NCBI GenBank assembly: GCA_044239745.1
Contig: JBIIAV010000002.1
Coordinates: 12,583 to 76,582, forward strand
From: Rickettsiales bacterium
GTDB taxonomy: Bacteria > Pseudomonadota > Alphaproteobacteria > Rickettsiales > UBA3002
Reading direction: 5' to 3'
DNA length: 64,000 bases
Below, in pieces: positions 1,306 through 60,009 of the stretch. Each line of letters starts with the position of its first letter. Position 1 is the stretch's first letter. Both the position numbers and the translations under genes were made by a program. Below the pieces are notes generated by a model. The model was not told where the DNA came from. It did not search any database and was given only the letters and a program-made list of their open reading frames with translations.

Positions 1306-1566
1306 CTATTTACTATTGAGGACGCGCAGCGCCGTGTAGAACACATCCTTCACGTGTTCCTCGGGCTTGACGCGGCCGGTGCGCATTTCGTCGGCGATCT
1401 TTTTCCAGACATCGTCGGGCATCTCCTTGGCAATGATGGTATAGCCCGCCGCCTCCAGCGCCTTGAGCACCGCCTGCGCCTGTTTGGTATAATCCTCGAA
1501 GAAATAGCTCGAATCCGCCTTGCTGATAGCATTCTGAATCACGGTCTGTAGCTTGGGCTTGCTCAT
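1306..1566 (-). CDS. hypothetical 86-aa soluble protein, translationally coupled to putA
   Basis: Its ATG (1564-1566) overlaps the putA TGA (1563-1565) as ATGA. Intact ORF with no family recognised. Confidence 0.5.
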   Translation of the reverse strand: MSKPKLQTVIQNAISKADSSYFFEDYTKQAQAVLKALEAAGYTIIAKEMPDDVWKKIADEMRTGRVKPEEHVKDVFYTALRVLNSK

Positions 1567-4500
1567 GCCAGCAGCTCGACATTGCCGCCGATGGCAGCGG
1601 TGTTGATGGTGGTGGTGCGCTCGCTGATGAAGCGCAGCAAATAATGCGGGCCGCCCGCCTTGGGGCCGGTGCCCGAAAGCCCCTCGCCGCCGAACGGCTG
1701 CACGCCCACCACCGCGCCCGTCATGCTGCGGTTGACGTAGCGGTTGCCCACCGGCGCTTCGTCCAAGATCGCTTCCATCTTGGCGCGCAGGCGCGTATGC
1801 AGGCCGAAGGTCAGGCCATAGCCGCTGCCGCGGATCTCGCCTAAAATCTTGGGCAGCTCTTTCGATTTATACGTGAAGAAATGCAACACGGGGCCGAAGA
1901 TCTCCTCGCTAAGTTGGCTGGGCGAATCAAGGCCGAACACGTGCGGCGGCACGAAGGTATCGTCCGATGGGGGCGTTGCCCCCAAACCCCCTCCGCTTCG
2001 CGGCTCGCCTTCGGCTACGCACGGCTGAATCTCGCACGCATGGTGCCAGCGCGCGACGCGCTTCATCGCCCCGATATGGGCAAGCAGGCCTTGCTGCGCC
2101 CCACGGTCGATCACCGGACCGATATCGGTCGCAAGGTCGCGCGTGTCGGCCACCCGCAATTCGTCCATCGCGCCCACCAGCAAATCGCGCAGATGTTGCG
2201 CCACTTCTTCCTGCACAAATAGCATCCGCAAGCTGGAGCAGCGTTGCCCCGCCGAGCCGAACGCGCTCGTGATAATATCGTCGCAGGCCTGTTCCAGCAG
2301 CGCCGAGGAATCGACGATCATGGCGTTCATACCGCCCGTCTCGGCGATCAGCGGCACGATCGGGCCGTCCTTTTCGGCCAGTGCGCGCGCAATATATTTC
2401 GCAACGGTCGTCGAGCCGGTGAAGCAGACGCCCGCCACCTGCGGTGCCGTCACCAACGCGGCGCCCACCGTCTCGCCCGCGCCGCAGGCCAGCAGCAACG
2501 CGTCGGTCGGGATGCCCGCCTCGTGCAGCACGGCCACCGCTGCGGCAGCGATGCGCGGCGTTTGTTCGGCCGGTTTGGCGACCACACTATTGCCCGCAAC
2601 CAAGGCCGCCGCCACTTGGCCGATGAAGATCGCCAGCGGGAAATTCCACGGGCTGATGCACACGAACACCCCGCGGCCATGCAGCGTCAGCACGTTGCTT
2701 TCGCCGGTCGGCCCGTTCAGCGTTTGCGGCGCAAATATGCGTTCGGCCTCGTTGGCATAATAGCGGCAGAAATCGACCGCCTCGCGCAGCTCGGCCACGG
2801 CATCGGCATAGGTCTTTTTGGCTTCCGTCACGCATAGGGCGATCATGGCGTCGCGGCGTGCCTCAAGCAGGTCGGCGGCGCGGCGCAAAGCGGCCGCACG
2901 CGTCGCAACGGGGGTCGTGTCCCAGCCATGGAAGGCTGCCTGCGCCCGCGTCACCATCACCGCCGCATCGCTGGCGTGCATGTCCTTGGGTGCGGGTGTG
3001 GGGGTCGAAAAATGCTGCGCAACATGCTGCATGAAATCAAGGCGCACACTGCGGTAACCGAAATCGATGCCGAGCGGATTCTTGCGCGTCGCACCGTAGA
3101 GATCGACCGGCAGCGGAATATCACTCGCCGGTTGTGCGTCGGCGGCGCGCACATGCGCAATCGGGCTTACGGTCAGGTCATCGACCGCCGTGCGTTTATC
3201 CATCAACAGATGCACGAACGAGCTATTGGCGCCATTTTCGAGCAGCCGGCGGATGAGGTAGGCGAGCAGATCCTTGTGCGCCCCGACCGGCGCATAGATG
3301 CGCACGCGGTAGCCGGTAGCATCGTGATGCGCCGCTTGCGTAGGCTCCGCCGCCCCCTTAATCGACACAAGCTGATCATGCAGGCTTTCGCCCATGCCGT
3401 GCAAACGTTGGAACTCATACTGCGCGGGCACACGTTGCTGCGCCTCGGCCATGGTGATGATGGTGGCCACCGTCAGCGCGTTATGGGTCGCAAATTGCGG
3501 GTAAATCGTATCGCCCGCCGCCAATAATTGCTGCGCACAGGCGAGGTAGGAAAGGTCGGTATATTCCTTGCGCGTGAACACGGGATAGCCCGCCAATCCC
3601 TGCATCTGCGCATGCTTGATCTCGCTGTCCCAATAGGCGCCCTTGACCAGCCGCACCGGAATGCGTCGGCCCAGTTTCTTTGCCAATGCTGCAAGCGTTT
3701 CGGCCACGAACACGGCACGCTTCTGGTAGGCCTGCAACACGAATCCGATGCCCTCGAAATCGGCAAATTCGGGGTCCTCGAGCAGGTTCTTATAGATCTC
3801 GAGCTCGATCTCCAGCCGGTTGGCCTCCTCGGCATCCAGCGACACCGCGATGCGGTGCGCCTTGCCTTCGCGTAGAATATCCTTCAGGCGCGGTAGCAAT
3901 TCGTTCATCACGCGCGCTTCCTGTGTTTGGGCATAGCGCGGGTGCAGTGCCGAGAGCTTCACCGAAATGCCGGGGCGGGCGAACAGTTCCGTCTCCTTCG
4001 TCGCCGCCGCGATTTGGCGAATGCCGGTGAGGTACGATTGCACATAGCCTTGCGCCTGCGTGTCCGTGCGCGCGCCCTCGCCCAAAATGTCATAGGAAAT
4101 GGTGTAGCCCTTGGCCTCGTCGTCCTGCGCTTGTTTGATCGCGTCCGCCACCGTTTCGCCCATCACGAATTGGGTGCCGAGGAATTTCATGCCGGCGCGC
4201 AGTGCTTGCCGGATCACCGGCTCGCCGGAGCGTTTGATGAGCCCGCCGAACCATGCGGCCATCGAATCGCCGGCGTCCAAATCCAGCACCGAACCGGTCA
4301 GCATCAGCGCCCAGGTGCTGGCGTTCACCAGCGTCGATTCGCTCTGCCCCAGATGCTGCTTCCAGTTGCCCGAGGCGAACGTATCCTCGATCAGCGCATC
4401 GGCGGTGCTGCTATCGGGAATGCGCAGCAGCGCCTCGGCCAGGCACATCATCGCGATGCCTTCCTTGGTCGATAGGCCATAGGACTGCAAGAACGCCTCG

Positions 4501-4688
4501 ACCGTGTTGGCCGAGCCGACCGCGCGTTGCTTGGTGATGAGGGCGTGGGCGCGCGCGCGGATGGTGGCGTCCATCGCCGTAAGCGGGCGCACCCGTTCCA
4601 GCAGCGCCTGCACGCGGGTGCGTTCATCCGCCAGTGCGTGCGCGCTGATATTGTCGAGCCAATGTTCCATGGCCGCCGACCTTGCCAT
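1563..4688 (-). CDS. putA: bifunctional proline dehydrogenase / L-glutamate-gamma-semialdehyde dehydrogenase PutA
   Basis: About 1040 aa. PRODH barrel region plus aldehyde dehydrogenase domain (FTGST, EAGGKNA-like ETGGMNA, catalytic SAGQRCS). Start moved to ATG 4688 (MARSAAMEHW...) because the longer track ORF would overlap the tRNA at 4781-4857. Confidence 0.93.
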   Translation of the reverse strand: MARSAAMEHWLDNISAHALADERTRVQALLERVRPLTAMDATIRARAHALITKQRAVGSANTVEAFLQSYGLSTKEGIAMMCLAEALLRIPDSSTADALIEDTFASGNWKQHLGQSESTLVNASTWALMLTGSVLDLDAGDSMAAWFGGLIKRSGEPVIRQALRAGMKFLGTQFVMGETVADAIKQAQDDEAKGYTISYDILGEGARTDTQAQGYVQSYLTGIRQIAAATKETELFARPGISVKLSALHPRYAQTQEARVMNELLPRLKDILREGKAHRIAVSLDAEEANRLEIELEIYKNLLEDPEFADFEGIGFVLQAYQKRAVFVAETLAALAKKLGRRIPVRLVKGAYWDSEIKHAQMQGLAGYPVFTRKEYTDLSYLACAQQLLAAGDTIYPQFATHNALTVATIITMAEAQQRVPAQYEFQRLHGMGESLHDQLVSIKGAAEPTQAAHHDATGYRVRIYAPVGAHKDLLAYLIRRLLENGANSSFVHLLMDKRTAVDDLTVSPIAHVRAADAQPASDIPLPVDLYGATRKNPLGIDFGYRSVRLDFMQHVAQHFSTPTPAPKDMHASDAAVMVTRAQAAFHGWDTTPVATRAAALRRAADLLEARRDAMIALCVTEAKKTYADAVAELREAVDFCRYYANEAERIFAPQTLNGPTGESNVLTLHGRGVFVCISPWNFPLAIFIGQVAAALVAGNSVVAKPAEQTPRIAAAAVAVLHEAGIPTDALLLACGAGETVGAALVTAPQVAGVCFTGSTTVAKYIARALAEKDGPIVPLIAETGGMNAMIVDSSALLEQACDDIITSAFGSAGQRCSSLRMLFVQEEVAQHLRDLLVGAMDELRVADTRDLATDIGPVIDRGAQQGLLAHIGAMKRVARWHHACEIQPCVAEGEPRSGGGLGATPPSDDTFVPPHVFGLDSPSQLSEEIFGPVLHFFTYKSKELPKILGEIRGSGYGLTFGLHTRLRAKMEAILDEAPVGNRYVNRSMTGAVVGVQPFGGEGLSGTGPKAGGPHYLLRFISERTTTINTAAIGGNVELLA
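1966..2022 (-). repeat. palindromic-element copy inserted in-frame in putA
   Basis: Gene-sense sequence is GTGCGTAGCCGAAGGCGAGCCGCGAAGCGGAGGGGGTTTGGGGGCAACGCCCCCATC. It encodes CVAEGEPRSGGGLGATPPS inside the ALDH domain. Confidence 0.7.
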
Positions 4689-4780
4689 GCCCACGGCCAA
4701 TGTCAACACGCGGCAGCATTCGCCCCCGCCGATTCGCGGCTTCCCCCGCCCGTGCGATTGCGCTATGACCGGCCCAACGT

Positions 4781-4857
<77 letters not shown>

Positions 4858-4874
4858 TCAGCTTAATTTAAATT

Positions 4875-5104
4875 GAAGGGGGCATCGCCCCCTACGCGCC
4901 GCCCATTCACACGTTTGTGATTAGCGTTGCGTAGCGCTTTATGGCGCATCCGCGCGGGAGAGGCGCAGCAACGCGAAGCCAATCACATCGCGCTACGCGC
5001 CGCCCATTCACACGTTTGTGATTAGCGTTGCGTAGCGCTTTATGGCGCGAGCCGCGATAGTGGAGGGGGTTTGGGGGTGATACCCCCATCCACGCGCGAA
5101 GCGC
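4875..5104. repeat. tandem/composite copy of the palindromic-element family immediately 3' of tRNA-Arg
   Basis: GGGGGC-ATC-GCCCCC hairpin at 4878-4892. A 56-bp perfect direct repeat (4892-4947 = 4993-5048, period 101 bp) contains GCGTAGCGCTTTATGGCGC. It ends with GAGCC...GGGGGT-GAT-ACCCCC. Confidence 0.85.
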
Positions 5105-5125
5105 TTATCAACGGCTAGCCTACGG

Positions 5126-7720
5126 CTACGCCGCCACCAAATTGATGATGCGGTTGGGCACCACGATGGCCTTTTTCAGCGTCTTGCCATCAAGCGCGGC
5201 CTGCACGCTGGCGTTCTCCATCGCGGCGGCTTTCGCGGCGTCCTCGGGCATGTCTTTCGCCAATTGCAGCGTGGCACGCAGCTTGCCGTTCACTTGCACC
5301 GCCACTGTCACCGTGTCCTCGACCAGCAAGGCCGCGTCCGCCTTCGGCCACGGGCGCGTCGCGATCAGGTCGCCATGGCCGACCATCGACCATAATTCCT
5401 CGGCAAGGTGCGGCAGCAGCGGCGCGATGAGGTGGATCATCACCGTCACTGCCTCGGCCATATCGGCCTGCGCGGGGGCATCGGTCGCGCTGGTTTTTTC
5501 CAACTGGTTGGTCAGCTCGCGGATGCGCGCGACCGCCTTGTTGAAGTGGAATGCATCGTAATCCTTGGTCACGGCGTCGATGGTCTTGTGCGTTTGTTTG
5601 CGCAAGTCCGAGCTGCCGGTCGCGGCCGCAGCACTGGCCAGCGCCGCTTGGTTATCGGCGACCAACCGATAGAGCCGCTGCACATAGCGCCAGGCGCCGT
5701 CGATGCCGCTTTCCGTCCACTCCAAGCCACGATCCGGCGGCGAATCGCTCATCATGAACAGCCGCGCCGTATCCGCGCCATACGCCTCGATGATGTGGCG
5801 CGGGTCGACAACATTCTTCTTTGATTTGCTCATCTTCTCGCTGCGGCCCATCGTCACGGCGGCGCCGGTCGCTTCATGTTTCCAGCCGCCCTTGCCGTCC
5901 TCCATCACCTCGGCGGGGTAGACCCATTCGCCCGTGGCGCTGTTTTTGAACGTGGCGTGGGCGACCATGCCTTGCGTCATCAGCCGTGCGAACGGCTCGG
6001 CGATATCGAGAATGCCGCAGGTGGTGAGGGCGCGGGTGAAGAAACGGGCATACAGCAAATGCAGCACCGCATGCTCGATGCCGCCGATATATTGCTGCAC
6101 CGGCAGCCAGCGCGCGGCCTGCGCACGGTCGATGCCGTGGCCGCCGCCGCCACTGGCGTAGCAGGCGAAATACCAGCTCGATTCAAAGAACGTGTCGAAC
6201 GTGTCCGTCTCGCGCTGCGCCGGTTTGCCGCAGGTCGGGCACGGCACATGTTTCCATGTCGGGTGGTGCGCCAGCGGGTTGCCGGCCTTGTCGAACGTCA
6301 CGTCTTCCGGCAGCGTCACCGGCAACTGCGATTCCGGCACCGGCACCACACCGCAATCGTCGCAATGGATGATGGGGATCGGGCAGCCCCAATAGCGCTG
6401 ACGGCTGATGCCCCAGTCGCGCAGGCGATAATTGATTTTGCGCTCGCCGCACCCCGCGCGCTCAAGCTCGGCGATGGCTTTTTCCTTGGCGTCGGCCACG
6501 CTCAGCCCATTAAACAGCGGCGAGTTGATGAGGGTGCCGTCGCCGGTATAGGCCTCGTTCAACGGTTCGGGGTAGCCGCTGACCACGGGCAGGATGGGCA
6601 ACTTATATTTCGTCGCGAATTCGAAATCGCGTACATCGTGCGCGGGGCAACCGAACACCGCACCGGTGCCGTAACCCATTAGCACGAAGTTGGCGATGTA
6701 AAGTGGATGCTCGCTGCCGGTGAACGGGTTGACGACCGTAAGACCGGTGTCAAAGCCCAGCTTCTCCGCCTTCTCGATCGCCTCCTCCGAGGTTCCCAGT
6801 TGGCTGCATTCCTTGATGAACGCGGCCGCTTGCGGGTTGTGGGCGATCATGCTTTGCGCCAACGGGTGCTCCGGCGCGATCGCAACAAAACTCATGCCAT
6901 AGAACGTGTCGGGGCGCGTGGTATAGATCGCGATGCTGCTTTCGATGACGGGTTGATCGGGCTTATTGCACAGCACCTTCAACGTCACCAGCGCGCCGGA
7001 GGATTTGCCGATCCATTTCTCCTGCATCAGGCGCACTTTGTCCGGCCATGCGTCGAGCGTGGACAGCCCTTGCAATAAATCCTCGGCATAGTCGGTGATG
7101 CGCAGGAACCATTGATTGAGCGTGCGCCGCTCGACCGGTGCGCCGCTGCGCCAGCCGCGTCCGTCGATCACTTGTTCGTTGGCTAGCACCGTGTGGTCGA
7201 TCGGGTCCCAGTTGACCACCGCCTGTTTGCGGTAGGCAATGCCACGGCGCAGCATCTCGAGGAAGAAGCGCTGCTCGTGCTGGTAATATTCGGGGTTGCA
7301 GGTCGTCACCTCGCGCGACCAGTCGTAGCTCAGGCCGATATCGCTCAGCTGTTCGCGCATCGTCGCGATGTTCTGCAGCGTCCACGCCTTGGGGTGCGTG
7401 TTGCGCTCGATGGCGGCGTTCTCCGCCGGTAGGCCGAACGCATCCCACCCCATCGGGTACAGCACGTTATAGCCCAGCGCGCGGCGGAAGCGCGCCGTCA
7501 CGTCGCCCAAGGTGTAATTGCGCACATGCCCCATATGGATATTGCCCGACGGATACGGGAACATCTCGAGCACGAAATAGTCGGGCTTGCCGTTGGGTTC
7601 GGGTGTGCGGAACACGCCGGTATCGTTCCACACGGCCTGCCATTTCATCTCGGCGGCGCGGGCATGATAGCGTGGCGCGTTACGCGCAGCGCCCTGCGTG
7701 CTGTCGGGTTGGTCGGTCAC
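5126..7720 (-). CDS. leuS: leucine--tRNA ligase
   Basis: 864 aa. HIGH motif (PYPSGNIHMGH) and KMSKS motif (EKMSKSKKN). GTG start at 7720 gives the conserved N-terminal RY..AE.KWQ..W. Confidence 0.96.
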   Translation of the reverse strand: MTDQPDSTQGAARNAPRYHARAAEMKWQAVWNDTGVFRTPEPNGKPDYFVLEMFPYPSGNIHMGHVRNYTLGDVTARFRRALGYNVLYPMGWDAFGLPAENAAIERNTHPKAWTLQNIATMREQLSDIGLSYDWSREVTTCNPEYYQHEQRFFLEMLRRGIAYRKQAVVNWDPIDHTVLANEQVIDGRGWRSGAPVERRTLNQWFLRITDYAEDLLQGLSTLDAWPDKVRLMQEKWIGKSSGALVTLKVLCNKPDQPVIESSIAIYTTRPDTFYGMSFVAIAPEHPLAQSMIAHNPQAAAFIKECSQLGTSEEAIEKAEKLGFDTGLTVVNPFTGSEHPLYIANFVLMGYGTGAVFGCPAHDVRDFEFATKYKLPILPVVSGYPEPLNEAYTGDGTLINSPLFNGLSVADAKEKAIAELERAGCGERKINYRLRDWGISRQRYWGCPIPIIHCDDCGVVPVPESQLPVTLPEDVTFDKAGNPLAHHPTWKHVPCPTCGKPAQRETDTFDTFFESSWYFACYASGGGGHGIDRAQAARWLPVQQYIGGIEHAVLHLLYARFFTRALTTCGILDIAEPFARLMTQGMVAHATFKNSATGEWVYPAEVMEDGKGGWKHEATGAAVTMGRSEKMSKSKKNVVDPRHIIEAYGADTARLFMMSDSPPDRGLEWTESGIDGAWRYVQRLYRLVADNQAALASAAAATGSSDLRKQTHKTIDAVTKDYDAFHFNKAVARIRELTNQLEKTSATDAPAQADMAEAVTVMIHLIAPLLPHLAEELWSMVGHGDLIATRPWPKADAALLVEDTVTVAVQVNGKLRATLQLAKDMPEDAAKAAAMENASVQAALDGKTLKKAIVVPNRIINLVAA

Positions 7721-8377: not shown

Positions 8378-9598
8378 TCACGCCGCTTTTTTATCGGCGT
8401 GGAAATGGCGGCCACCGCCACCCGAACGGAAGGGTTTCTTGCCACCGTATTTCTTGTTGCGCGCCTTGGCGTAGGAGCGCGGCTTGTCGGCGAACTCACC
8501 GCCTTCGGGCTTCTGGTTGGGGTTGAGCAAGCGCTGGATCGCCTTCCATTTGCCGTTATCCTTTCCGGTGAGCAGGTTCACTGCCTCGCCGGTCTTGCCG
8601 TTACGGCCCGTGCGGCCGATACGATGGATGTAATCCTCCGGACATTGCGGCATGTCGTAGTTGATGACATGTTCGATATGCGGAATATCGAGCCCGCGCG
8701 CGGCGATGTCGGTCGCCACCAGGATGCGGCATTTCTGGGCACGGAAATCGGCGATGACGCGGTCGCGTTGGCGCTGGTTCAGATTGCCGTGGATGGCTTG
8801 GGCGCGGTGGTTCAGCGCTCCCAGCTTCTTGGCCATCTTCTCGGCGCCGAATTTGGTCTGCACGAACACAAGGATGCTGCCTTCGCGCTGTTGCAACTGC
8901 ACTTGCAGTTGGCCGTATTTATCGGCTTCGGAAACGGTGATGACCTCCTGCTTGATCTTCGCGATCGGGGTGTTGTTGTCACCGACCGAGACCCGCACCG
9001 GATCGGCCATGTATTTTTGCGACATCTTGACGATGTTGGCCGGAAAGGTCGCCGAGAACATCAAGGTCTGGCGCACGGCAGGCATATGTTTCACCACCGC
9101 GTCGATCTGGATGCCAAAGCCCATATCGAGCATGCGGTCGGTCTCGTCGAGCACCAAGAAACTCGCATCGGCAAGCTTCAGCGTGCCGCGGGTGAGGTGG
9201 TCGTTGATGCGGCCGGGCGTACCCACGATCAAACGCGGGCGAGCGCGCAGCTGGCCGAATTGTTTGCCCATCGATTCGCCGCCGATCAAAAGCGCCGTGT
9301 GAATGCCGCTATCGGCGCCGAGCAATTGCTCCAGCATCGTCATCACCTGCACCGCCAATTCGCGGGTCGGGGTCATGACAAGTGCGCTGCCGCGCGGGGT
9401 GGTCAGCAGCTTGGCGATCAGCGGAATGCCGAAGGCGCCGGTCTTGCCGGTGCCGGTCTGGGCGGAACCCAGAATATCCTTGCCCTCAAGCGCCGGCGGA
9501 ATGGCCGCGGCTTGGATCGGGGTCGGGGTCGTGAATTTCATGTAGTCGAGGGCTTGCAGCAAATATTCCGGCAAGCCGAGTGTCTTGAAGTTTTCCAT
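8378..9598 (-). CDS. DEAD-box ATP-dependent RNA helicase (RhlE/DeaD-like) with basic C-terminal tail
   Basis: Q-motif, AQTGTGKT, PTRELA, DETD (DEAD variant), SAT and HRIGRTGR motifs. Lys/Arg/Gly-rich tail. Confidence 0.92.
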   Translation of the reverse strand: MENFKTLGLPEYLLQALDYMKFTTPTPIQAAAIPPALEGKDILGSAQTGTGKTGAFGIPLIAKLLTTPRGSALVMTPTRELAVQVMTMLEQLLGADSGIHTALLIGGESMGKQFGQLRARPRLIVGTPGRINDHLTRGTLKLADASFLVLDETDRMLDMGFGIQIDAVVKHMPAVRQTLMFSATFPANIVKMSQKYMADPVRVSVGDNNTPIAKIKQEVITVSEADKYGQLQVQLQQREGSILVFVQTKFGAEKMAKKLGALNHRAQAIHGNLNQRQRDRVIADFRAQKCRILVATDIAARGLDIPHIEHVINYDMPQCPEDYIHRIGRTGRNGKTGEAVNLLTGKDNGKWKAIQRLLNPNQKPEGGEFADKPRSYAKARNKKYGGKKPFRSGGGGRHFHADKKAA

Positions 9599-10394: not shown

Positions 10395-10572
10395 TCGATT
10401 ATAAAAATTATCCACGGGCGGCAGGGTGGGGTGGTGGCAGTGCGGTGGCGTCATGGTCGTCCGAACGCGCCGCGACGCTTGCTTCCTTGGCCGCTTCATC
10501 GCACAATGCCGCTTGACAGGAATGGGCGTACTGCCTAGACCTCCCCCGTTTGTCCGGAGAATGTTTGCGCAT

Positions 10573-10630
10573 GAAGGGGCCTCGCCCCTTCGCGAACGCT
10601 GACCCGAGGCTCGCCATGAAGGCTACGCAC
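10573..10630 (-). repeat. intergenic copy of the palindromic-element family (carA leader region)
   Basis: Reverse complement reads GTGCGTAGCCTTCATGGCGAGCCTCGGGTCAGCGTTCGCGAAGGGGCGAGGCCCCTTC. Confidence 0.75.
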
Positions 10631-10653
10631 GCTAAAGTAGGATTCGTTATACG

Positions 10654-11904
10654 ATGACCATGCCGCTGAAACCTGCACCCAACGCCGCCTTACTTCTTGC
10701 GGATGGGACAGTGTTTTTTGGCCAAGGCATCGGGCAAGCGGGCACCACCAGCGGCGAGATCTGCTTCAACACCGCCATGACCGGCTATCAGGAAATCCTG
10801 ACCGACCCTTCGTATGCCGGCCAGATCATCACCTTCACCTTCCCGCATATCGGCAATGTCGGCACGAATGACGAGGATATCGAGAGCCTCGTGCCCGTCG
10901 CCGCCGGACTCATCCTGCGCGAGGCGATCACCGAACCTTCGAACTTCCGCAGCCAAAGCCACCTCGATGCGTGGATGAAAAAGCACGGCCTGCGCGGCAT
11001 CAGCGGGGTGGATACGCGGGCGCTGGCGCGCCATATCCGCATCAACGGCGCGCAGAATTGCGCCATCATCATCAGCGCGCAAGGCGCGCCTAACCTCGAT
11101 AAACTCAAAGCCGCCCTCGAAGCCGCACCCGACATGAACGGCTTGGAATTGGCCGCGCATGTGACGACGAAAGAAGCCTATACGTGGCAAGAGCCGCGCT
11201 GGACATTGGGCGCGGGGCATACGCCGCAAACGCAAGCGGTCGATGCATCGGTGCGTAGCGTAAGCGAGCCGCGCAGCGGCGGGGTCAGCGGCGAAGCCGC
11301 GAAGGGGCAAAGCGCCCCTTCATTGTGCCACGTAGTGGCAATAGATTACGGCGTCAAACGCAACATCCTGCGTTCGCTGATATCAGCCGGCGTGCGCCTC
11401 ACGGTCGTACCCGCCACCGCCACCGCCGAGGAGATCTTGGCCCTCAACCCCGACGGCATCTTCCTAAGCAATGGCCCCGGCGACCCCGCCGCCACCGGCA
11501 GCTACGCCGTGCCCACCATCAAGAAACTGATTGCCAGCAGCAAGCCCCTTTTCGGCATCTGTCTTGGCCACCAGATGCTCGGCATCGCCCTTGGCTGCCG
11601 TACCGAAAAAATGCGCCAAGGGCACCGGGGTGCCAACCATCCGGTGAAGGATCTGGCCACCGGCAAGGTCGAGATCACCTCGCAGAACCACGGCTTCGCG
11701 ATTAGCGATACCAACCTACCCGAGGACGTCGAAGTCACCCACCGCTCGCTGTTCGATGGCACCATTCAGGGCATCCGCGTCGTCGGCAAGCCCATCTTCA
11801 GCGTGCAAGGCCACCCCGAGGCCTCGCCGGGGCCACATGATTCGCACTACCTTTTCCAGCGCTTCGTTCAGTGCATGCGCGCCGATACAAAGAAAGCAGC
11901 CTAA
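10654..11904 (+). CDS. carA: carbamoyl-phosphate synthase small (glutaminase) subunit
   Basis: 416 aa. Conserved N-domain and class-I GATase (GICLGHQ, HGFA, QGHPE). Stop overlaps the carB start (TAATG). Confidence 0.96.
11251..11322 (+). repeat. palindromic-element copy inserted in-frame in the carA interdomain linker
   Basis: GTGCGTAGCGTAAGCGAGCCGCGCAGCGGCGGGGTCAGCGGCGAAGCCGCGAAGGGGCAAAGCGCCCCTTCA. It encodes [24 protein letters not shown]. Confidence 0.75.
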
Positions 11905-17482: not shown

Positions 17483-17490
17483 TTTTTTAG

Positions 17491-17671
17491 TAGGGGACTC
17501 TTTGTCCCCTACGCTTCGCTGACCCCCAGCCGCTTCGCGGCTCGCCATGGAAGGCTACGCACCGCCTACTCAAACGTTTGGATTATCCGTGCGTAGCGCT
17601 TTATGGCGCGAGCCGGAGCGAAGCGAACGAGGGGGAACGGAGTGGGGGCGAAACGCCCCCATAGCGAAGCG
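17491..17671. repeat. full inverted dimer of the palindromic-element family between convergent genes
   Basis: Left hairpin GGGGAC-TCTTT-GTCCCC. Left arm CCGCTTCGCGGCTCGCCATGGAAGGCTACGCAC. Loop CGCCTACTCAAACGTTTGGATTATCC. Right arm GTGCGTAGCGCTTTATGGCGCGAGCCGGAGCGAAGCG. Right hairpin GGGGGC-GAAAC-GCCCCC. Confidence 0.85.
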
Positions 17672-44138: not shown

Positions 44139-44672
44139 ATGCTCAATCTCGTCCTCTATCAACCGGATATTCCCCAAAATCTAGGGGCTTGCCTGCGGCT
44201 TTGCGCATGCATGGGCGCCACGGTGCACATCATCGAGCCCTGCGGCTTTGTGCTGGATGATACCAAAATTCGTCGCGCCGGCATGGATTATATGCATAAA
44301 GTCAACTATGTCCGCCATCTCGATTGGCAGGCCTTTCTAAACTATCGCCATGCAGCGGATGAAGCCCGCGTAGCCTCCCATGGCGAGCCGCGTGCGGAGG
44401 GGGGAAGCAAAGCGAGGGGGGCGATGCCCCCTTCACGATTACTCCTACTCGAGACGGATGGCGCCACCCCCTACACCGAGATTTCCTACCAACCCACCGA
44501 TTACATCGTCTTTGGCCGCGAATCGGCCGGCACGCCGGCAGCGCTCTATGCGCAGATGGACACCACCCTCACCATCCCGATGGTGGCGGGCATGCGCTCC
44601 TTGAATGTCGCGATGAGCGCTGGCATGGTGGTCGCCGAAGCCTGCCGCCAAATGAATTGGAAATTTGCATGA
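44139..44672 (+). CDS. trmL: tRNA (cytidine/uridine-2'-O)-methyltransferase TrmL (SpoU/TrmH family)
   Basis: MLNLVLYQPDIPQNLGACLRLCA..., FGRESAGTP, IPM..GMRSLNVAMSAGMV. Roughly 24 aa longer than canonical because of the repeat insertion. Confidence 0.9.
   Translation: MLNLVLYQPDIPQNLGACLRLCACMGATVHIIEPCGFVLDDTKIRRAGMDYMHKVNYVRHLDWQAFLNYRHAADEARVASHGEPRAEGGSKARGAMPPSRLLLLETDGATPYTEISYQPTDYIVFGRESAGTPAALYAQMDTTLTIPMVAGMRSLNVAMSAGMVVAEACRQMNWKFA
44367..44434 (+). repeat. palindromic-element copy inserted in-frame in trmL
   Basis: CGCGTAGCCTCCCATGGCGAGCCGCGTGCGGAGGGGGGAAGCAAAGCGAGGGGGGCGATGCCCCCTTC. It encodes ARVASHGEPRAEGGSKARGAMPPS. Confidence 0.75.
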
Positions 44673-45766
44673 GCCTTGACGAGAAAAAAGCCACCGCCGC
44701 CGCATGGTTTCGCACCCTGCGCGACGATATCTGCGCCAAATTCGAGACGATCGAGGCGGAATACGCCGCCGCACATCCCGTAGCGGATTCGAGCATGCGT
44801 AGCGCGGATGGCCCGCGCGAGCCGGAGGCCGTTAGGCCGAACGATGGGGGGCCGGTAGGCGGGGGCGACTTCGCCCCCCGTGGCGAAGCCACCGCACGCT
44901 TCATACGTACTCCGTGGCAGCGCGACGGTGGCGGCAGCGGCGAGATGTCGATCATGAAAGGCCGCGTGTTCGAGAAGGTCGGCGTCAATATCTCGGTCGT
45001 TCAAGGCACATTTTCAGAGCAGTTCCGCCACGAGATCCCTGGTGCTAGCGAGGACCCGAATTTCTGGGCGGCGGGCATTTCGCTCGTCGCGCACATGGCA
45101 TCGCCCCTCGTGCCGGCGGCACATATGAACACCCGCATGATCGCGGTGGGCGAGCGCCCTACCCGCCTGTGGTTCGGCGGCGGCGGCGACCTCAACCCCA
45201 TGGTCGAGAATTCGCAGGACACCGCCGATTTCCACGCCGCCTTCAAAGCCGCCTGCGATGGGCTGAATACCGCAGCACATGCGAGCAGCGAGCCATCCAG
45301 CAACTACTACGACGCCTTCAAGCAATGGTGCGACGAATATTTCTTCATCCCCCACCGCAACGAGGCGCGCGGCGTCGGCGGCATTTTCTACGATTATCTC
45401 GGCCTCAACCGCTTCGGGGCGGATACCGCGCCCGTCACCTCCGGCCGCTTCGGCAAGGGCGGGGTCACCGCCGCGGCGACCGCTCACGGCATGCAGCTTG
45501 CCGCCAACGCCGCCATCGACTGGGGGCAAGGGCTTGCCTTCACGCAACAGGTCGGGCGGGCGTTCGCTTCCATCTACCCAGCCCTCATCCGCCGCCATAT
45601 GTTCGAGCCATGGACCGAGGCCGAGCGTCACCACCAACTCGTTAAGCGCGGGCGCTATGCCGAGTATAATTTGCTGTACGATCGTGGCACCCGCTTCGGC
45701 CTGATGACGGGTGGCAACACCGAAGCGATTTTAATGTCGCTGCCGCCCGTGGCTATTTGGGAATAG
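44669..45766 (+). CDS. hemF: oxygen-dependent coproporphyrinogen III oxidase
   Basis: From ATG 44669 (ATGA overlap with the trmL stop). Motifs WQRDGGG, H.NTR, WFGGGGDL, HRNEARGVGGIF, RGRY.E.NL.YDRGT.FGL and PP...W. Roughly 65 aa longer than the E. coli enzyme. Confidence 0.92.
   Translation: MSLDEKKATAAAWFRTLRDDICAKFETIEAEYAAAHPVADSSMRSADGPREPEAVRPNDGGPVGGGDFAPRGEATARFIRTPWQRDGGGSGEMSIMKGRVFEKVGVNISVVQGTFSEQFRHEIPGASEDPNFWAAGISLVAHMASPLVPAAHMNTRMIAVGERPTRLWFGGGGDLNPMVENSQDTADFHAAFKAACDGLNTAAHASSEPSSNYYDAFKQWCDEYFFIPHRNEARGVGGIFYDYLGLNRFGADTAPVTSGRFGKGGVTAAATAHGMQLAANAAIDWGQGLAFTQQVGRAFASIYPALIRRHMFEPWTEAERHHQLVKRGRYAEYNLLYDRGTRFGLMTGGNTEAILMSLPPVAIWE
44795..44890 (+). repeat. palindromic-element copy inserted in-frame near the hemF N-terminus
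   Basis: ATGCGTAGCGCGGATGGCCCGCGCGAGCCGGAGGCC...GGGGGCGACTTCGCCCCC...GGCGAAGCC. It encodes MRSADGPREPEAVRPNDGGPVGGGDFAPRGEA. Confidence 0.7.
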
Positions 45767-54059: not shown

Positions 54060-55645
54060 GCCTGCTTTCCATCGAACATCTGTCGATCGCTTTCGGCACC
54101 ACCCAAGTGGTGCGCAACGTGTCGCTGCATGTCGCCAAAGGCGAGGTGCTGGCGCTGGTCGGCGAGTCGGGTTCGGGCAAGTCGCTCACCGCCCAATCCA
54201 TCACCCGATTGCTGCCCGCCAACGCCCGTATCGAGGGCCGCATCGCGCTCAACGGCCGCGTGCTTTCGTCGCTTGGCGATAGCGCCATCACCCAGGTGCG
54301 CGGCCGCGAAGTCGGCATGATCTTCCAAGAGCCGATGACCGCCCTCAACCCACTGCATCCAATCGACAAGCAGATCATCGAATCGTTCTGCCTACATCAG
54401 CGCGTGGCGCGCCACAGTTCCACCGCCCAAGCAAAGCTCGGCGAGCTTTGTGTTGCCGTTGGACTGCAGCATTTGGATACGCGCGGCACCGTCTATCCGC
54501 ACCAGCTTTCCGGCGGCGAACGCCAACGCGTGATGATCGCGATGGCGATTGCCAATAACCCGTCGCTGCTGATCGCGGACGAGCCAACGACCGCGCTCGA
54601 CGTCACGCTGCAAGGGCAGATTCTGAAGCTGTTGGCGCGCCTGCAGCGCGAGCGCAATATGGGGCTGCTGTTCATCACCCATGACTTGCTGATGGTGCAG
54701 CAAATTGCCGATCGTGTTGCCGTCATGCATGCGGGCGAAATCGTCGAGACCGGCGCGGTGGCGGACGTGTTCGCCAACCCCCAGCACGCCTATACGCGCA
54801 TGCTGCTCAACGCCACGCCAAGCGGCGTTTCCACCCCCATTGCTGCAACGGCCAAGGCCATTATTTCCTGCGATCATCTGTCCGTACGCTTTGATATCAA
54901 AAGCCCGATATTGCGCCGCCGGCTACGCGTCGTGCAAGCGGTGAAGGACGCCACATTCGCTCTGCATGCCGGCGAAACATTGGGCGTCGTCGGTGAATCG
55001 GGTTCGGGTAAAAGTTCGCTTGGATTTGCCCTGCTGCGCCTGATCAAAAGCGACGGCCCCATCGTCTTTCTGGGCGAACGCATCGACACGCAAACCATCA
55101 AGCAATTACGCCGCGTGCGCCATGCCATGCAGATCGTTTTCCAAGACCCATTCAGCAGTCTCAATCCGCGCATGAGCGTCGGCGAGATCATCGCGGAAGG
55201 ATTGCGACTGCACCGCAAAAAATTCAACGAAGATACCGATGCCTTGGTGGACGATATATTGCAAAAAGTCGGCCTAACGCCGGAGATGAAATACCGCTAT
55301 CCGCATGAGTTCTCGGGCGGTCAGCGACAGCGCATCGCCATTGCCCGTGCCATGGTGCTCAAGCCGGCGCTGGTGGTGCTCGACGAACCAACTTCCGCGC
55401 TCGATATGTCGGTACAACAACACGTGCTGGAGCTACTCAAGGACCTACAACGCACGCATGATGTGGCGTATATTTTCATCACGCATGATCTGCGCGTGGT
55501 GCGCGCGATGGCACACCAAATGCTCGTCCTCAAGCGCGGTGAAGTGGTCGAATCGGGCGCGTGCGAAACGGTATTTGCTGCACCGCAGCATGATTATACG
55601 CGTACACTTCTTGCTGCAGCATTAAGTGCAGCAAAAATTACTTAA
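54056..55645 (+). CDS. yejF: ABC transporter ATP-binding protein with duplicated ATPase domains (YejF-like)
   Basis: 529 aa. Two Walker A motifs (GESGSGKS x2), two LSGG signatures (LSGGERQR, FSGGQRQR) and two Walker B motifs. Confidence 0.92.
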   Translation: MSLLSIEHLSIAFGTTQVVRNVSLHVAKGEVLALVGESGSGKSLTAQSITRLLPANARIEGRIALNGRVLSSLGDSAITQVRGREVGMIFQEPMTALNPLHPIDKQIIESFCLHQRVARHSSTAQAKLGELCVAVGLQHLDTRGTVYPHQLSGGERQRVMIAMAIANNPSLLIADEPTTALDVTLQGQILKLLARLQRERNMGLLFITHDLLMVQQIADRVAVMHAGEIVETGAVADVFANPQHAYTRMLLNATPSGVSTPIAATAKAIISCDHLSVRFDIKSPILRRRLRVVQAVKDATFALHAGETLGVVGESGSGKSSLGFALLRLIKSDGPIVFLGERIDTQTIKQLRRVRHAMQIVFQDPFSSLNPRMSVGEIIAEGLRLHRKKFNEDTDALVDDILQKVGLTPEMKYRYPHEFSGGQRQRIAIARAMVLKPALVVLDEPTSALDMSVQQHVLELLKDLQRTHDVAYIFITHDLRVVRAMAHQMLVLKRGEVVESGACETVFAAPQHDYTRTLLAAALSAAKIT

Positions 55646-56565
55646 ACGCCGCCACCCAAACGCCGCAAAATTTCGTCGAGCTGGGTCAGCGAATCGTAGC
55701 CGATGATCACCTCGCCGGACTGACCACTGCGCGTATCGATGCTGACGCGAAGGCCAAGCGAATCGGCGAGCATATTTTCAAGCTGGATGACATCTTCGCT
55801 CTTGGTTGCGCTGCTACGCGATTTGGTTGCGCCGGAACGCGGTGTGCTTTGCTTTTCCTCGCTCTTAGCGTTTGCGGCTTCTCCCTTGGCGCGCGCTTCC
55901 GCCTCACGCACGCTGAGGCCGATCTCGATAATTTGCTGCGCCAATTCTTCCGGATTTTTTGCCATCAGAATCGCGCGGGCATGCCCCATCGTCAGCTCAC
56001 CGGAATCGATGCGCTGCTTGATGCTTTCGGGCAGTTTTTGCAAGCGCAGCAAATTGGCGACGTGGCTGCGGCTTTTTCCGATCACCGGCGCCAAACGTTC
56101 CTGCGTGTAACCAAATTCGTCCATCAACCGTTGATAGCCGGCGGCCTCCTCCAGCGGATTGAGATCCGCGCGCTGAATATTTTCGATCAGCGCCAATTCC
56201 AGCGCCTGCGTATCATTCACTTCGCGGATGATGACCGGCACTTTCGCTAATTTTGCAAGGGTGGCAGCGCGCCAACGGCGCTCTCCCGCGATGATCTCAT
56301 AGGCGTTGGGCGCGACCAAGCGCACCACAATCGGCTGCATCACGCCGTGCTTTTCGATCGAGTCGGCAAGCTCGGCGAGCGCGGCGTCATCGAAATGGCG
56401 GCGCGGCTGATATTTGCCCGCCTTCAATTGCTGGATGGGCAGTTGCAACGTGCCGTTTTCGTTGATGCTCACTGCCACCGGCTCGGCCAAGCTGGCGGCC
56501 GTTTCCCCCATCAGCGATGAAAGCCCGCGACCGAGACCTTTAGTGTTTTTTGCTGCTATTGCCAT
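55642..56565 (-). CDS. parB: chromosome partitioning protein ParB
   Basis: 307 aa. GLGRGLSSL, the ParB box QPRR.FD...L.ELA.SI...G..QPI.VR, GERRWRA (CTP-binding arginine patch), and an HTH region. AAGGAG ribosome-binding site. Confidence 0.95.
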   Translation of the reverse strand: MAIAAKNTKGLGRGLSSLMGETAASLAEPVAVSINENGTLQLPIQQLKAGKYQPRRHFDDAALAELADSIEKHGVMQPIVVRLVAPNAYEIIAGERRWRAATLAKLAKVPVIIREVNDTQALELALIENIQRADLNPLEEAAGYQRLMDEFGYTQERLAPVIGKSRSHVANLLRLQKLPESIKQRIDSGELTMGHARAILMAKNPEELAQQIIEIGLSVREAEARAKGEAANAKSEEKQSTPRSGATKSRSSATKSEDVIQLENMLADSLGLRVSIDTRSGQSGEVIIGYDSLTQLDEILRRLGGGV

Positions 56566-56586
56566 GATGTTTCTCCTTGTTAAATG

Positions 56587-57375
56587 TTAGGCCGCCGCTT
56601 TGATGGCGAATTGTTTTTCACGTTGAATGAGCTCGCGGGCGAGTTGCAGATAGGCTTGGCTGCCGGGGCATTTGAGATCGTAGACCAGCGCCGGTTTGCC
56701 ATGGCTTGGCGCCTCGGACATCCGCACATTGCGGGGGATGACGGTCTTGTAGACATCCGTTCCCAAGAAGCCGCGCACGTCCTCTTCGATCTGCTCGGTG
56801 AGCTTGTTGCGACGATCGTACATCGTCAGCACTACGCCGTGGATGGTGAGTCCGGCATTCAAATTCGCCTGCACCAGCTTGATGGTCTTGAGCAAATGCG
56901 CCAACCCCTCGAGGGCATAGAATTCGCATTGCAACGGGATGAGTACGGCGTTGCTTGCCGTCAGCGCGTTGAGGGTCAACAGCCCAAGCGACGGCGGACA
57001 ATCGATGATGGCATAGTCCCATTGCGCGGACATCGAGGCCAGCGCTTGCCGTAATTGAAATTCCCTTTTATCCATGGTTACAAGCTCGATCTCGGCTCCG
57101 GTGAGGTCGATGGTCGCCGGCGCCACAGAAAGTCGTGGAATGGCCGTTTTAACGGCCGCTTGCTCCAAAGTGGCATTCCCGATGAGCACATCGTACGAAG
57201 TGCGCACCCGTTTGCTTTGATCGATGCCCAGACCCGTCGAGGCATTGCCCTGCGGGTCGAGGTCGATCACCAGCACTTGCTTGCCGATGGCAGCCAGTGC
57301 GGTGGCCATATTGACAGCGGTGGTCGTCTTGCCCACCCCCCCTTTTTGGTTCACGACCGAGATAATGCGTGTCAT
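56587..57375 (-). CDS. parA: chromosome partitioning ATPase ParA
   Basis: From ATG 57375: MTRIISVVNQKGGVGKTTTAVN, the deviant Walker A motif. The longer track ORF overlaps rsmG. Confidence 0.94.
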   Translation of the reverse strand: MTRIISVVNQKGGVGKTTTAVNMATALAAIGKQVLVIDLDPQGNASTGLGIDQSKRVRTSYDVLIGNATLEQAAVKTAIPRLSVAPATIDLTGAEIELVTMDKREFQLRQALASMSAQWDYAIIDCPPSLGLLTLNALTASNAVLIPLQCEFYALEGLAHLLKTIKLVQANLNAGLTIHGVVLTMYDRRNKLTEQIEEDVRGFLGTDVYKTVIPRNVRMSEAPSHGKPALVYDLKCPGSQAYLQLARELIQREKQFAIKAAA

Positions 57376-57382
57376 AAAAAAC

Positions 57383-58012
57383 CTATCTGTTTCCGTGCGG
57401 TTTAAGTGATAATTGCGATATCGAAATAATGCTGGATATCGCATGCGTTTTACTTGGTTTTGCGGTGCTTTGATAGTCCCATGATTCACTGGCTTTTTTC
57501 AATTCCTCGGCAGCGTTTTCGCCTTTGGGAAAGAGGGCGATGCCCCCTGCCCCCATCAGCCGATGCGCCATAGCGAACAGACCATCCAGCGCCGTCAACG
57601 CCCGCGCCGTCACCACATCGTATTGCCCGACGAGCTCGGCGATATCGATCGCCATGACCGTAACATTGGAAAGACCAAGACGATGCTTTGCTTCGGTAAG
57701 GAACGCTGCCTTACGCTGGTCCTGCTCGACCAAGGTAACGAACAGTTGCGGACATTGTATCGCAATCACCAACCCCGGTAAGCCAGCCCCACTTCCCAAA
57801 TCGACAAGGGTTTTGGCATTTTTGGGAATCAACGGAACCAATTGCAAGCTATCATCGATATGGCGCGACCAAATATCGGCTTGTGTTGCAGGGCCAATCA
57901 GATTGATCTTCGCGTTCCACTTTAAAAGCAGCGCGACATAATCGGCCATGGGTGAAAATGTTTCACGTGAAACATTTTGTGGCGATGATGTTTGTTGATC
58001 AACACGAAGCAT
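57383..58012 (-). CDS. rsmG: 16S rRNA (guanine527-N7)-methyltransferase
   Basis: 209 aa. VSRET...LLLKWNAKINL N-terminus. SAM motif DLGSGAGLPG. Confidence 0.93.
   Translation of the reverse strand: MLRVDQQTSSPQNVSRETFSPMADYVALLLKWNAKINLIGPATQADIWSRHIDDSLQLVPLIPKNAKTLVDLGSGAGLPGLVIAIQCPQLFVTLVEQDQRKAAFLTEAKHRLGLSNVTVMAIDIAELVGQYDVVTARALTALDGLFAMAHRLMGAGGIALFPKGENAAEELKKASESWDYQSTAKPSKTHAISSIISISQLSLKPHGNR
57959..57974. promoter_or_regulatory. parS: parS centromere site 1 (inside rsmG codons for VSRET)
   Basis: Perfect TGTTTCACGTGAAACA. The palindrome extends to 24 bp (57955-57978). Confidence 0.9.
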
Positions 58013-58061
58013 GGTGTCTACATAATCAATCTGACGCGTCTTGTCATCTCGAATCTAAAAA

Positions 58062-58077
58062 TGTTTCACGTGAAACA
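58062..58077. promoter_or_regulatory. parS: parS centromere site 2 (rsmG-mnmG intergenic)
   Basis: Perfect TGTTTCACGTGAAACA. The palindrome extends to 26 bp (58057-58082). Confidence 0.9.
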
Positions 58078-58089
58078 TTTTTGGATGGT

Positions 58090-59952: not shown

Positions 59953-60009
59953 AAGCTTGCAGCAGTGTGTTCATGTTATTGTTGATTGTGTGATCGGCCG
60001 TTCAAGCCC

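Follow-up and report, generated by a model that had tools for sequence, protein, structure and literature searches.

The stretch of contig JBIIAV010000002.1 analysed here, 64,000 nt from a Rickettsiales bacterium and referred to below as the window, carries carA, the gene for the small subunit of carbamoyl-phosphate synthase, at 10654-11904 on the plus strand as an intact open reading frame (ORF) of 416 aa. The CarA protein has the Pfam domains CPSase_sm_chain at residues 13-138 and GATase (class-I glutamine amidotransferase) at residues 229-406. In the linker between them there are 24 residues (200-223), encoded by the 72 nt at 11251-11322, which are a copy of a dispersed DNA repeat. The copy is an insertion relative to the orthologous genes and keeps the frame of an intact carA, as had been proposed in a first-pass annotation of the sequence. 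The reading frame stays open because the repeat unit is a multiple of three bases and is free of stop codons in the frame used.

Aligned with CarA of E. coli (1bxr_B, E = 1.9e-124), the window protein matches in two blocks, residues 10-195 with residues 4-186 of 1bxr_B and residues 225-410 with residues 192-376. Between the blocks there are 29 unaligned residues in the window CarA and 5 in E. coli, which makes 24 extra residues and bears out the annotation's statement that the E. coli linker is shorter by about that number; against the nearest insert-free orthologues the difference is 27 aa. A profile search (nhmmer) matches the carA unit at 11247-11324 (E = 6e-10) and, where a filled and an empty allele can be compared, the 5' junction lies at, or 1-2 nt before, (G/C)TGCGTAGC. 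By the profile match, the difference in length from the orthologues, and the allele junction, the coordinates 11251-11322 are correct to within about 10 nt.

Apart from the insert, carA looks fully functional at the sequence level. The catalytic residues Cys303, His387, and Glu389 do not vary across 30 aligned relatives, and the carA stop codon overlaps the start of carB by one base (TAATG), which suggests that the two genes are translationally coupled. The insert directly precedes the first beta-strand of the amidotransferase domain (residues 225-231 in the model), in the linker that is the most length-variable part of CarA among the 80 loci compared. In E. coli, the counterpart of the insert region is the charged stretch AKKEDELP, the charge of which suggests a solvent-exposed loop. 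In an AlphaFold2 model based on a 30-sequence alignment, there is no secondary structure across residues 196-221 and the predicted local distance difference test (pLDDT) values are 27-32; this supports an unstructured insert, in a weak model that does not by itself establish exposure.

The repeat family in the window and in related genomes

Each unit of the family is made up, in order, of box 1, (G)TGCGTAGC, a spacer of 2-16 nt, box 2, GCGAGCC(G), a G-rich stretch that often has small GCNNC-GNA-GNNGC hairpins, and a terminal GC hairpin. The terminal hairpin is found in all units, with a GC stem of 8-9 bp, the sequence of which varies among the copies while its pairing is kept. The units are 57-105 nt long and about 70% G+C, in a window of about 61% G+C. 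The 64 kb contain 8 exact matches to GCGTAGC-N(2-16)-GCGAGCC, where dinucleotide-preserving shuffles of the window would lead one to expect 0.04; none of 100 shuffles reaches 8. A profile hidden Markov model (HMM) of the unit identified 9 full units and one or two partial ones in the window, 4 of the 9 within genes and 5 intergenic. No Rfam family matches the repeat.

In the carA unit, which is on the plus strand, box 1 (GCGTAGC) is at 11253-11259 and box 2 (GCGAGCC) at 11264-11270, followed by a predicted mini-hairpin, GCGGC-GAA-GCCGC, at about 11288-11300 and a predicted terminal hairpin with an 8 bp GC stem, GAAGGGGC-AAAGC-GCCCCTTC, at 11301-11321. The other three genic units are also in frame. 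The putA copy, at 1960-2027 on the minus strand within putA (1563-4844, minus strand), encodes (P)CVAEGEPRSGGGLGATPPS, and the trmL copy, at 44361-44438 on the plus strand within trmL (44139-44672, plus strand), encodes ARVASHGEPRAEGGSKARGAMPPS. The hemF copy, at 44790-44896 on the plus strand within hemF (44657-45766, plus strand), is longer and more divergent (E = 7e-5), lies close to the N-terminus of the protein, and encodes MRSADGPREPEAVRPNDGGPVGGGDFAPRGEATA. Codon reading agrees with the first-pass annotation in that GAG CCG CGN is read as E-P-R in carA, putA, and trmL and as E-P only in hemF, and in that the 3' hairpin is read as APS in carA and as PPS in putA and trmL. Likewise, each of the four copies has the orientation of its host gene, on the minus strand in putA and on the plus strand in carA, trmL, and hemF.

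Comparison with solved structures places extra residues at these copies too. In TrmL, residues 69-96 of the window protein are opposite only two residues of E. coli TrmL (4kdz), giving 26 extra; in PutA, a gap of 19-20 residues in the Bradyrhizobium (B. japonicum) protein (3haz) faces EIQPCVAEGEPRSGGGLGA; and in HemF there are about 45 extra residues relative to the solved structures, between the N-terminal helix and the core. The same insert is present, almost unchanged, at the same site in the TrmL protein P0123, which is 84% identical overall; an insert can thus be kept while its host protein diverges substantially. Indeed, the insert peptides, ARVA-EGEPRAEGGSKARGAMPPS in P0123 and ARVASHGEPRAEGGSKARGAMPPS in the window, are better conserved than the host protein. 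HemF has a second extra segment at residues 250-292 (45404-45532), of 43 residues against 7 in the solved homologues; there is no repeat of it in the DNA compared and a similar segment is found in the HemF of L167, and it is therefore probably an extension specific to the clade rather than a copy of a repeat.

One of the intergenic units lies about 20 nt upstream of the carA start, at 10566-10635 on the minus strand (E = 5e-9), in the opposite orientation to carA, and is also present on the independent contigs L081 and L082. Two others form a head-to-head pair at 17488-17567 (minus strand) and 17584-17667 (plus strand), with the centre CAAACGTTTG and fold z-scores of -2.5 and -3.5. The remaining intergenic copies cluster beside a tRNA-Arg gene at 4871-5138, where a hairpin and partial unit (4871-4976) is followed by a full unit on the plus strand (5023-5096) that overlaps one on the minus strand (5064-5138). 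The tRNA-Arg(CCT) itself is at 4781-4857, adjoined by a perfect 56-nt direct repeat at 4892-4947 and 4993-5048, spaced 101 nt apart, which is the 5' part of the repeat unit duplicated directly downstream of the tRNA.

Related loci were searched at the DNA level without regard to frame, using the profile HMM and a two-box regular expression that required a downstream hairpin. Together with the window these searches gave 48 units. Genic units are present in carB (one in L011 and two in L084), in priA (three in L002 and two in L188), in leuS (L169), in hemF (L167, at a different site from the window hemF), and in carA (L083, L084, and L207). The three priA units of L002 lie at about 17.3-19.8 kb, and the carB of L084 (11843-15520) has at least 5 extra segments, in which VTSHQSPVTS, yet another repeat, occurs three times. 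The E-P peptide is also carried by P0122, a cytochrome-b chaperone-like protein. A metagenome scan for GTGCGTAGC-N(2-12)-GCGAGCCGCG returned at least 120 loci, most of which are matches by chance to unrelated GC-rich DNA and have no hairpin downstream, and only about 17 among the matches listed are true members of the family. A concatenated query of the E-P-frame peptides gave 4 matches at E <= 1, in a search of 5.8 billion proteins in which matches of about 24 residues cannot reach significance.

Filled and empty carA alleles in relatives

Relatives of carA were taken from 80 species-representative loci, the source genome not being among the species representatives. The best matches to CarA are from metagenome-assembled genomes (MAGs) labelled Alphaproteobacteria, Pseudomonadota, 'Rickettsiales', or 'Azospirillum sp.', at no more than 80% identity. 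In 78 of the 80 the linker has 10-21 residues between conserved flanks and nothing homologous to the insert, and the two closest representatives (80% and 78% identity) do not have it. Orthologue comparison had been proposed as the means of refuting an insertion, through a homologous peptide in genomes that lack the repeat; the result instead favours insertion, and the genomes behind the insert-bearing orthologues (L083, L084, and L207) have intergenic copies of the repeat as well. An identical 416-aa CarA is encoded on independent JGI and ENA metagenome contigs, which share the upstream intergenic unit, and an assembly artefact is thereby ruled out. That the linker is ancestral is ruled out by the insert-free state of most representatives and by the existence of near-identical filled and empty alleles.

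These alleles were found in a large protein collection, where CarA relatives at 76-81% identity include both states. The empty alleles P0006-P0009 are 389 aa long. Among the filled alleles, P0002 and P0003 have an insert of type T1, AVRSASEPLAAGVSPKGVGGKAPF, with a short spacer and three hairpins, and P0004 and P0005 have type T2, SVRSRDGRGEP..RGGAVAGAER, with a long CGCGATGGCCGCG spacer and a different 3' half; further types are present in P0010, P0020, P0028, and P0097. The T2-type units are found inside carB and priA as well. The filled alleles have inserts of 81-90 nt and the frame is preserved in every one of them. In a neighbour-joining tree of CarA from which gapped columns were left out, the T1, T2, and empty alleles are interleaved.

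P0003 (T1) and P0009 (empty), encoded at L207 and L208, differ by one gap of 30 aa in proteins that are otherwise about 98% identical, with 97.5% identity in the DNA. The empty junction of P0009 reads ...GACGATAGCC|TGCCCCATG, and the filled junctions of P0003 read ...GACGAGTCAGCC|CTGCGTAGC...TTCAATGAACAATTTT|TGCCCCATG. At this one clean filled/empty junction there is no target-site duplication, AGCC|element|TGCCCC standing against AGCC|TGCCCC. Judged by these alleles, the insertion in carA happened recently and is polymorphic. The two loci are distinguished by about 10 substitutions and one 6-nt indel within about 45 nt on the upstream side of the insert, compared with 14 substitutions over the remaining 1,090 nt or so; this upstream cluster (L207, 4500-4700) may point to a tract of recombination or to local mutagenesis connected with the element.

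Other insertions were seen in CarA of relatives. In the cultured sphingomonad Sphingobium boeckii DSM 25079 (L061, 10553-10636) there is an unrelated insert of 28 residues in the same linker, and its 3' 30-35 nt, with the GTCCCGAGCGCAGTCGAGGGAC hairpin, recur three times just upstream, at 8936-8965, 9261-9295, and 9322-9355. By this recurrence, it is an independent repeat-derived insertion at the same CarA site, and together with the variable length of the linker it supports the view that the site is permissive. The carA of P0005 (L084, 10889-10990) has a third insertion site, in the GATase domain, where a different repeat encodes LRGAAGDAAIQ...LLRSARNDRP; partial copies of this repeat are found in L188 and L067. 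The N-domain loop after EDIES (about residue 80; alignment columns about 83-135) is a second hot spot, with inserts of 5-50 residues in at least 12 relatives, and in P0075 it reads GVRSVSTEGAKGQRAPTEH, resembling the peptide of the carA-linker repeat. In the case of L003 (JBIIJL010000144.1), a contig belonging to a MAG titled 'Legionella sp.', the encoded CarA is 76% identical to that of the window, and the contig is probably mis-binned or mislabelled.

Orientation, reading phase, and the replication origin

Among the 30 non-genic copies of the unit, the forward phase in which box 2 is read as E-P is free of stop codons in 27, the phase containing the TAG of GCGTAGC in 9, and the third forward phase in 15, with 19, 22, and 23 for the reverse phases. 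A filter on stop codons alone would predict the E-P phase in 23.5% of genic copies and the sense orientation in 44%. In the window, the genic copies are in the E-P phase in 4 of 4 cases (P = 0.003) and co-oriented with the host gene in 4 of 4 (P = 0.04). Among all genic copies found by the frame-blind searches, 13 of 15 are in the E-P phase (P = 4e-7) and 14 of 15 are co-oriented (P = 1e-4), these P values being indicative only, as the genic copies are not all independent events. Agreement in orientation and frame is therefore greater than expected both by chance, as the first-pass annotation had judged, and by avoidance of stop codons. Its further suggestion that only one orientation and frame is tolerated holds as a strong bias and fails as an absolute rule, since one priA copy in L188 is in the opposite orientation and the leuS copy of L169 reads box 2 as R-A-A, its 5' and 3' ends being in the usual phases.

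In the E-P phase the peptide is rich in Gly, Arg, Ala, Ser, Glu, and Pro and has mixed charge; the alternative phases give peptides with 21% Arg, or rich in Leu and Pro. This composition is in keeping with selection for the loop that disturbs the protein least, though it does not prove it. The units' 5' flank is itself semi-conserved, as ..GAT(T)A(G/T)CC | GT-GCGTAGC, and the empty carA site already reads GATAGCC|, for which reason a sequence preference at the insertion step may contribute to the re-use of the site and to the phase bias. Replication strand is ruled out as an explanation of the orientation, since the minus-strand putA copy is aligned with its gene just as the three plus-strand copies are with theirs.

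Elsewhere in the window there is an origin-proximal parB-parA-gidB(rsmG)-gidA(mnmG)-mnmE cluster at 55642-61329 on the minus strand, with four copies of the 16-nt palindrome TGTTTCACGTGAAACA at 57951-58575, corresponding to the parS consensus. Cumulative GC skew is lowest at about 56-58 kb of the window, and on this account the replication origin is probably near this position.

Nature of the element and its place among known repeats

The segment at 11251-11322 is a unit of a non-autonomous, GC-rich palindromic family of the repetitive extragenic palindromic (REP) or MITE (miniature inverted-repeat transposable element) type, and it is, with high probability, translated as a tolerated passenger loop. 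On this explanation, the palindromic element would have landed in frame in a tolerant stretch of the CarA linker, before the first GATase beta-strand; transcription and translation would then make of it a flexible loop of about 24-27 residues in which Gly, Ser, Glu, Arg, Pro, and Ala are abundant. CarA would tolerate the loop, which would be neutral to it, a passenger and not a functional module, and the hairpins would be irrelevant to the protein, since the ribosome would melt them. The same family would have done likewise in putA, trmL, and hemF of the window and in carB, priA, leuS, and hemF of relatives, and the surviving genic copies would be mostly in one orientation and frame, probably because the E-P frame gives the most innocuous peptide.

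Several points limit or weigh against this explanation. Retention of the segment in the mRNA and the protein is deduced from the intact frame and from conservation, and a second, insert-free carA may lie outside the 64 kb covered. No transposase was found, in an analysis in which the ORFs were not all scanned systematically for domains; the repeat-rich locus L183 shows ordinary, densely packed ORFs, and the filled/empty carA junction lacks a target-site duplication. The AlphaFold2 model of CarA has a mean pLDDT of 68.5 and poor inter-domain geometry; compared with E. coli CarA (Foldseek, PDB) it has a template modelling (TM) score of 0.52 and a root-mean-square deviation of about 12.8 A, with both domains recognisable. 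Finally, the clustering of differences upstream of the insert in L207/L208 could mean that the patchy distribution comes from exchange of linker alleles by recombination and not from repeated insertion.

It might be supposed that the CarA linker underwent an old, lineage-specific expansion, which gave the extra peptide, and that the intergenic look-alikes are unrelated to it or derived from the peptide-coding region. Linker length does vary in many lineages and several relatives have a similar peptide at the same place, but the two-box-plus-hairpin DNA is also intergenic and in unrelated genes, on both strands, and near-identical carA alleles differ by the presence of the insert, which the closest species representatives do not have; such an expansion is scarcely credible. 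It is also very unlikely, if slightly less so, that the protein never contains the insert, either because carA has become a pseudogene disabled by it or because it is taken out ahead of translation. There is a strong hairpin with an 8 bp GC stem inside the coding sequence, and expression of the segment is a matter of deduction. However, the frame is preserved exactly in the window gene and in all filled alleles, the catalytic residues do not vary, the carA-carB overlap suggests coupled translation, the trmL insert has been kept with its frame intact across 16% protein divergence, and no intron-like or intein-like features would fit in 72 nt, Rfam finding nothing.

The agreement in orientation and frame could in principle be a by-product of stop codons, with insertions occurring in all six phases and the stop-free ones surviving. 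The E-P frame is the most open (27/30) and the TAG-containing frame is open in only 9/30, but the other four phases are stop-free in 50-77% of copies, from which comes the prediction of 23.5% for the E-P phase, far below the use observed in the window (P = 0.003) and overall (P = 4e-7); this account is improbable. A stronger case can be made that the patchy presence in carA comes from homologous recombination, by which strains living together would swap complete linker alleles, and not from repeated insertion or excision at a hot spot, a history that we consider quite possible, though short of probable. The concentration of L207/L208 differences in the 45 nt upstream of the insert speaks for it, as does the common 5' flank CA(A/G) GCG NNN GA(T/G) of filled alleles from different lineages; on the other side, at least 2 structurally different subtypes (T1 and T2) are present at the same site, and T2-type units also occur in carB and priA. 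Because structurally distinct subtypes share the one carA site, more than one insertion, or an internal replacement, would still be needed. Exchange of alleles concerns the history of the insert and not its nature, and is compatible with the passenger-loop explanation, which is preferred here.

In-frame palindromic repeats are best known from Rickettsia, where they are discussed as a selfish-DNA route to new protein loops. The Rickettsia palindromic elements (RPEs) come from the AT-rich genomes of obligate intracellular Rickettsia. In the later accounts cited here, RPE-1 to RPE-10 (Ogata et al. 2000) are summarised as in-frame palindromic repeats in Rickettsia housekeeping genes (PMC10969869, PMC3733652), RPE-1 being about 150 bp long (PMC10969869). 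Like these, the carA-linker family consists of short, palindromic, dispersed repeats in an alphaproteobacterium, both intergenic and in frame in unrelated housekeeping genes, with one reading phase giving a conserved peptide (4/4 in the window, 13/15 overall, the hairpin being conserved) and with host proteins that are apparently functional. Unlike them, its units measure 57-105 nt with about 70% G+C, the genome around them has about 61% G+C and possesses carAB, putA, and hemF, and near-identical filled and empty alleles are seen. The host is not in the genus Rickettsia, its CarA matching uncultured alphaproteobacterial MAGs at no more than 80%. By host and by very different composition, the family is not an RPE, and sequence homology to RPEs is unlikely given the differences in base composition and length; the likening to RPEs in the first-pass annotation is apt as an analogy.

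REPs tagged with GTAG/CGTC are GC-rich hairpins, 20-40 nt long and frequently arranged as inverted pairs (Di Nocera et al. 2013; PMC3733652), and in several bacteria a minority of them lie within ORFs, adding 20-30 residues, sometimes twice per gene (PMC3733652). The carA-linker family resembles them in its short GC-rich palindrome in many copies (9 units in 64 kb, and 48 with related loci), in its inverted pairs, similar to dimers of bacterial interspersed mosaic elements (BIMEs), at 17488-17667 and 5023-5138, and in its intragenic copies that add residues. In many copies GTAG is also found beside or within the hairpin, as in GTAGGGGAC...GTCCCCTAC at 17491-17513. It differs in being composite, with two conserved boxes and one to three hairpins, and in its very high genic fraction, 4 of 9 units in the window. 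Moreover, GTAG is no free tag, being paired within the stem. It precedes or enters the stem at 17491 in the window and in L083, L183, and L010, whereas GAAG is found in the carA copy, in the intergenic copy ig10628, and in L011; there is a GTAG in box 1 as well. As for the class of REPs associated with RAYTs (REP-associated tyrosine transposases), the family is a candidate member, in agreement by its palindrome and its dimers and ambiguous in its GTAG tag. For REPs, an IS200/IS605-RAYT single-strand 'peel and paste' mechanism has been proposed (PMC3733652), and mobility of this kind would be compatible with the carA-linker family because there is no target-site duplication, the empty sites are clean, and GTAG is beside the hairpin in many copies.

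Small non-autonomous elements that are sometimes inside ORFs and add peptide segments also include QMITE1 and QMITE2 of Coxiella burnetii, which are MITEs (PMC5896051), and the enterobacterial repetitive intergenic consensus (ERIC) and related elements, intragenic copies of which are known in enterobacteria (Delihas; PMC2229807, cited in PMC10969869). These are MITEs with terminal inverted repeats and, in part, target-site duplications, whereas the carA unit has neither. The 5' end (boxes) and 3' end (hairpin) of a single unit differ, no terminal inverted repeats being present, and only the head-to-head pairs of units look inverted. By these features, the family is not a classical MITE.

No report of REPs in carA, priA, leuS, hemF, or putA is given in the supplement of Di Nocera et al., and no earlier description was found of the carA-linker family or of such inserts in carA. 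What is described here is a real new family, and a new host lineage, for a known phenomenon, RPE-like or intragenic-REP-like. To this are added the high genic fraction, the near-identical filled and empty alleles, the repeated use of the same site by several subtypes, and a phase bias greater than stop avoidance would give.

A bolder and rather doubtful proposal is that the clade hosts an actively mobile REP-like family, entering, and perhaps cleanly leaving, coding sequence at sites that resemble its own 5' flank (..GAT.A.CC|). The host clade may be one of uncultured, GC-rich, and metabolically fairly complete alphaproteobacteria with genomes of about 2.1-2.4 Mb, from lakes, soils, and wastewater. 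Were this so, CarA, CarB, PriA, LeuS, HemF, TrmL, and PutA would have loop polymorphisms of 20-30 residues, at least 3 subtypes would have entered the CarA linker site independently of one another, and the RPE phenomenon would not be peculiar to reduced intracellular genomes, the clade offering a natural system for loop acquisition in real time.

Inserts of this kind inflate protein lengths and break domain alignments in MAG annotation, and recognising the family avoids such mis-annotation. The behaviour described for Rickettsia is seen here in a GC-rich alphaproteobacterial lineage that is not Rickettsia, in at least 7 housekeeping proteins, and the co-occurrence of filled and empty alleles allows direct tests of tolerance, of mobility, and of the dominance of a single reading phase.

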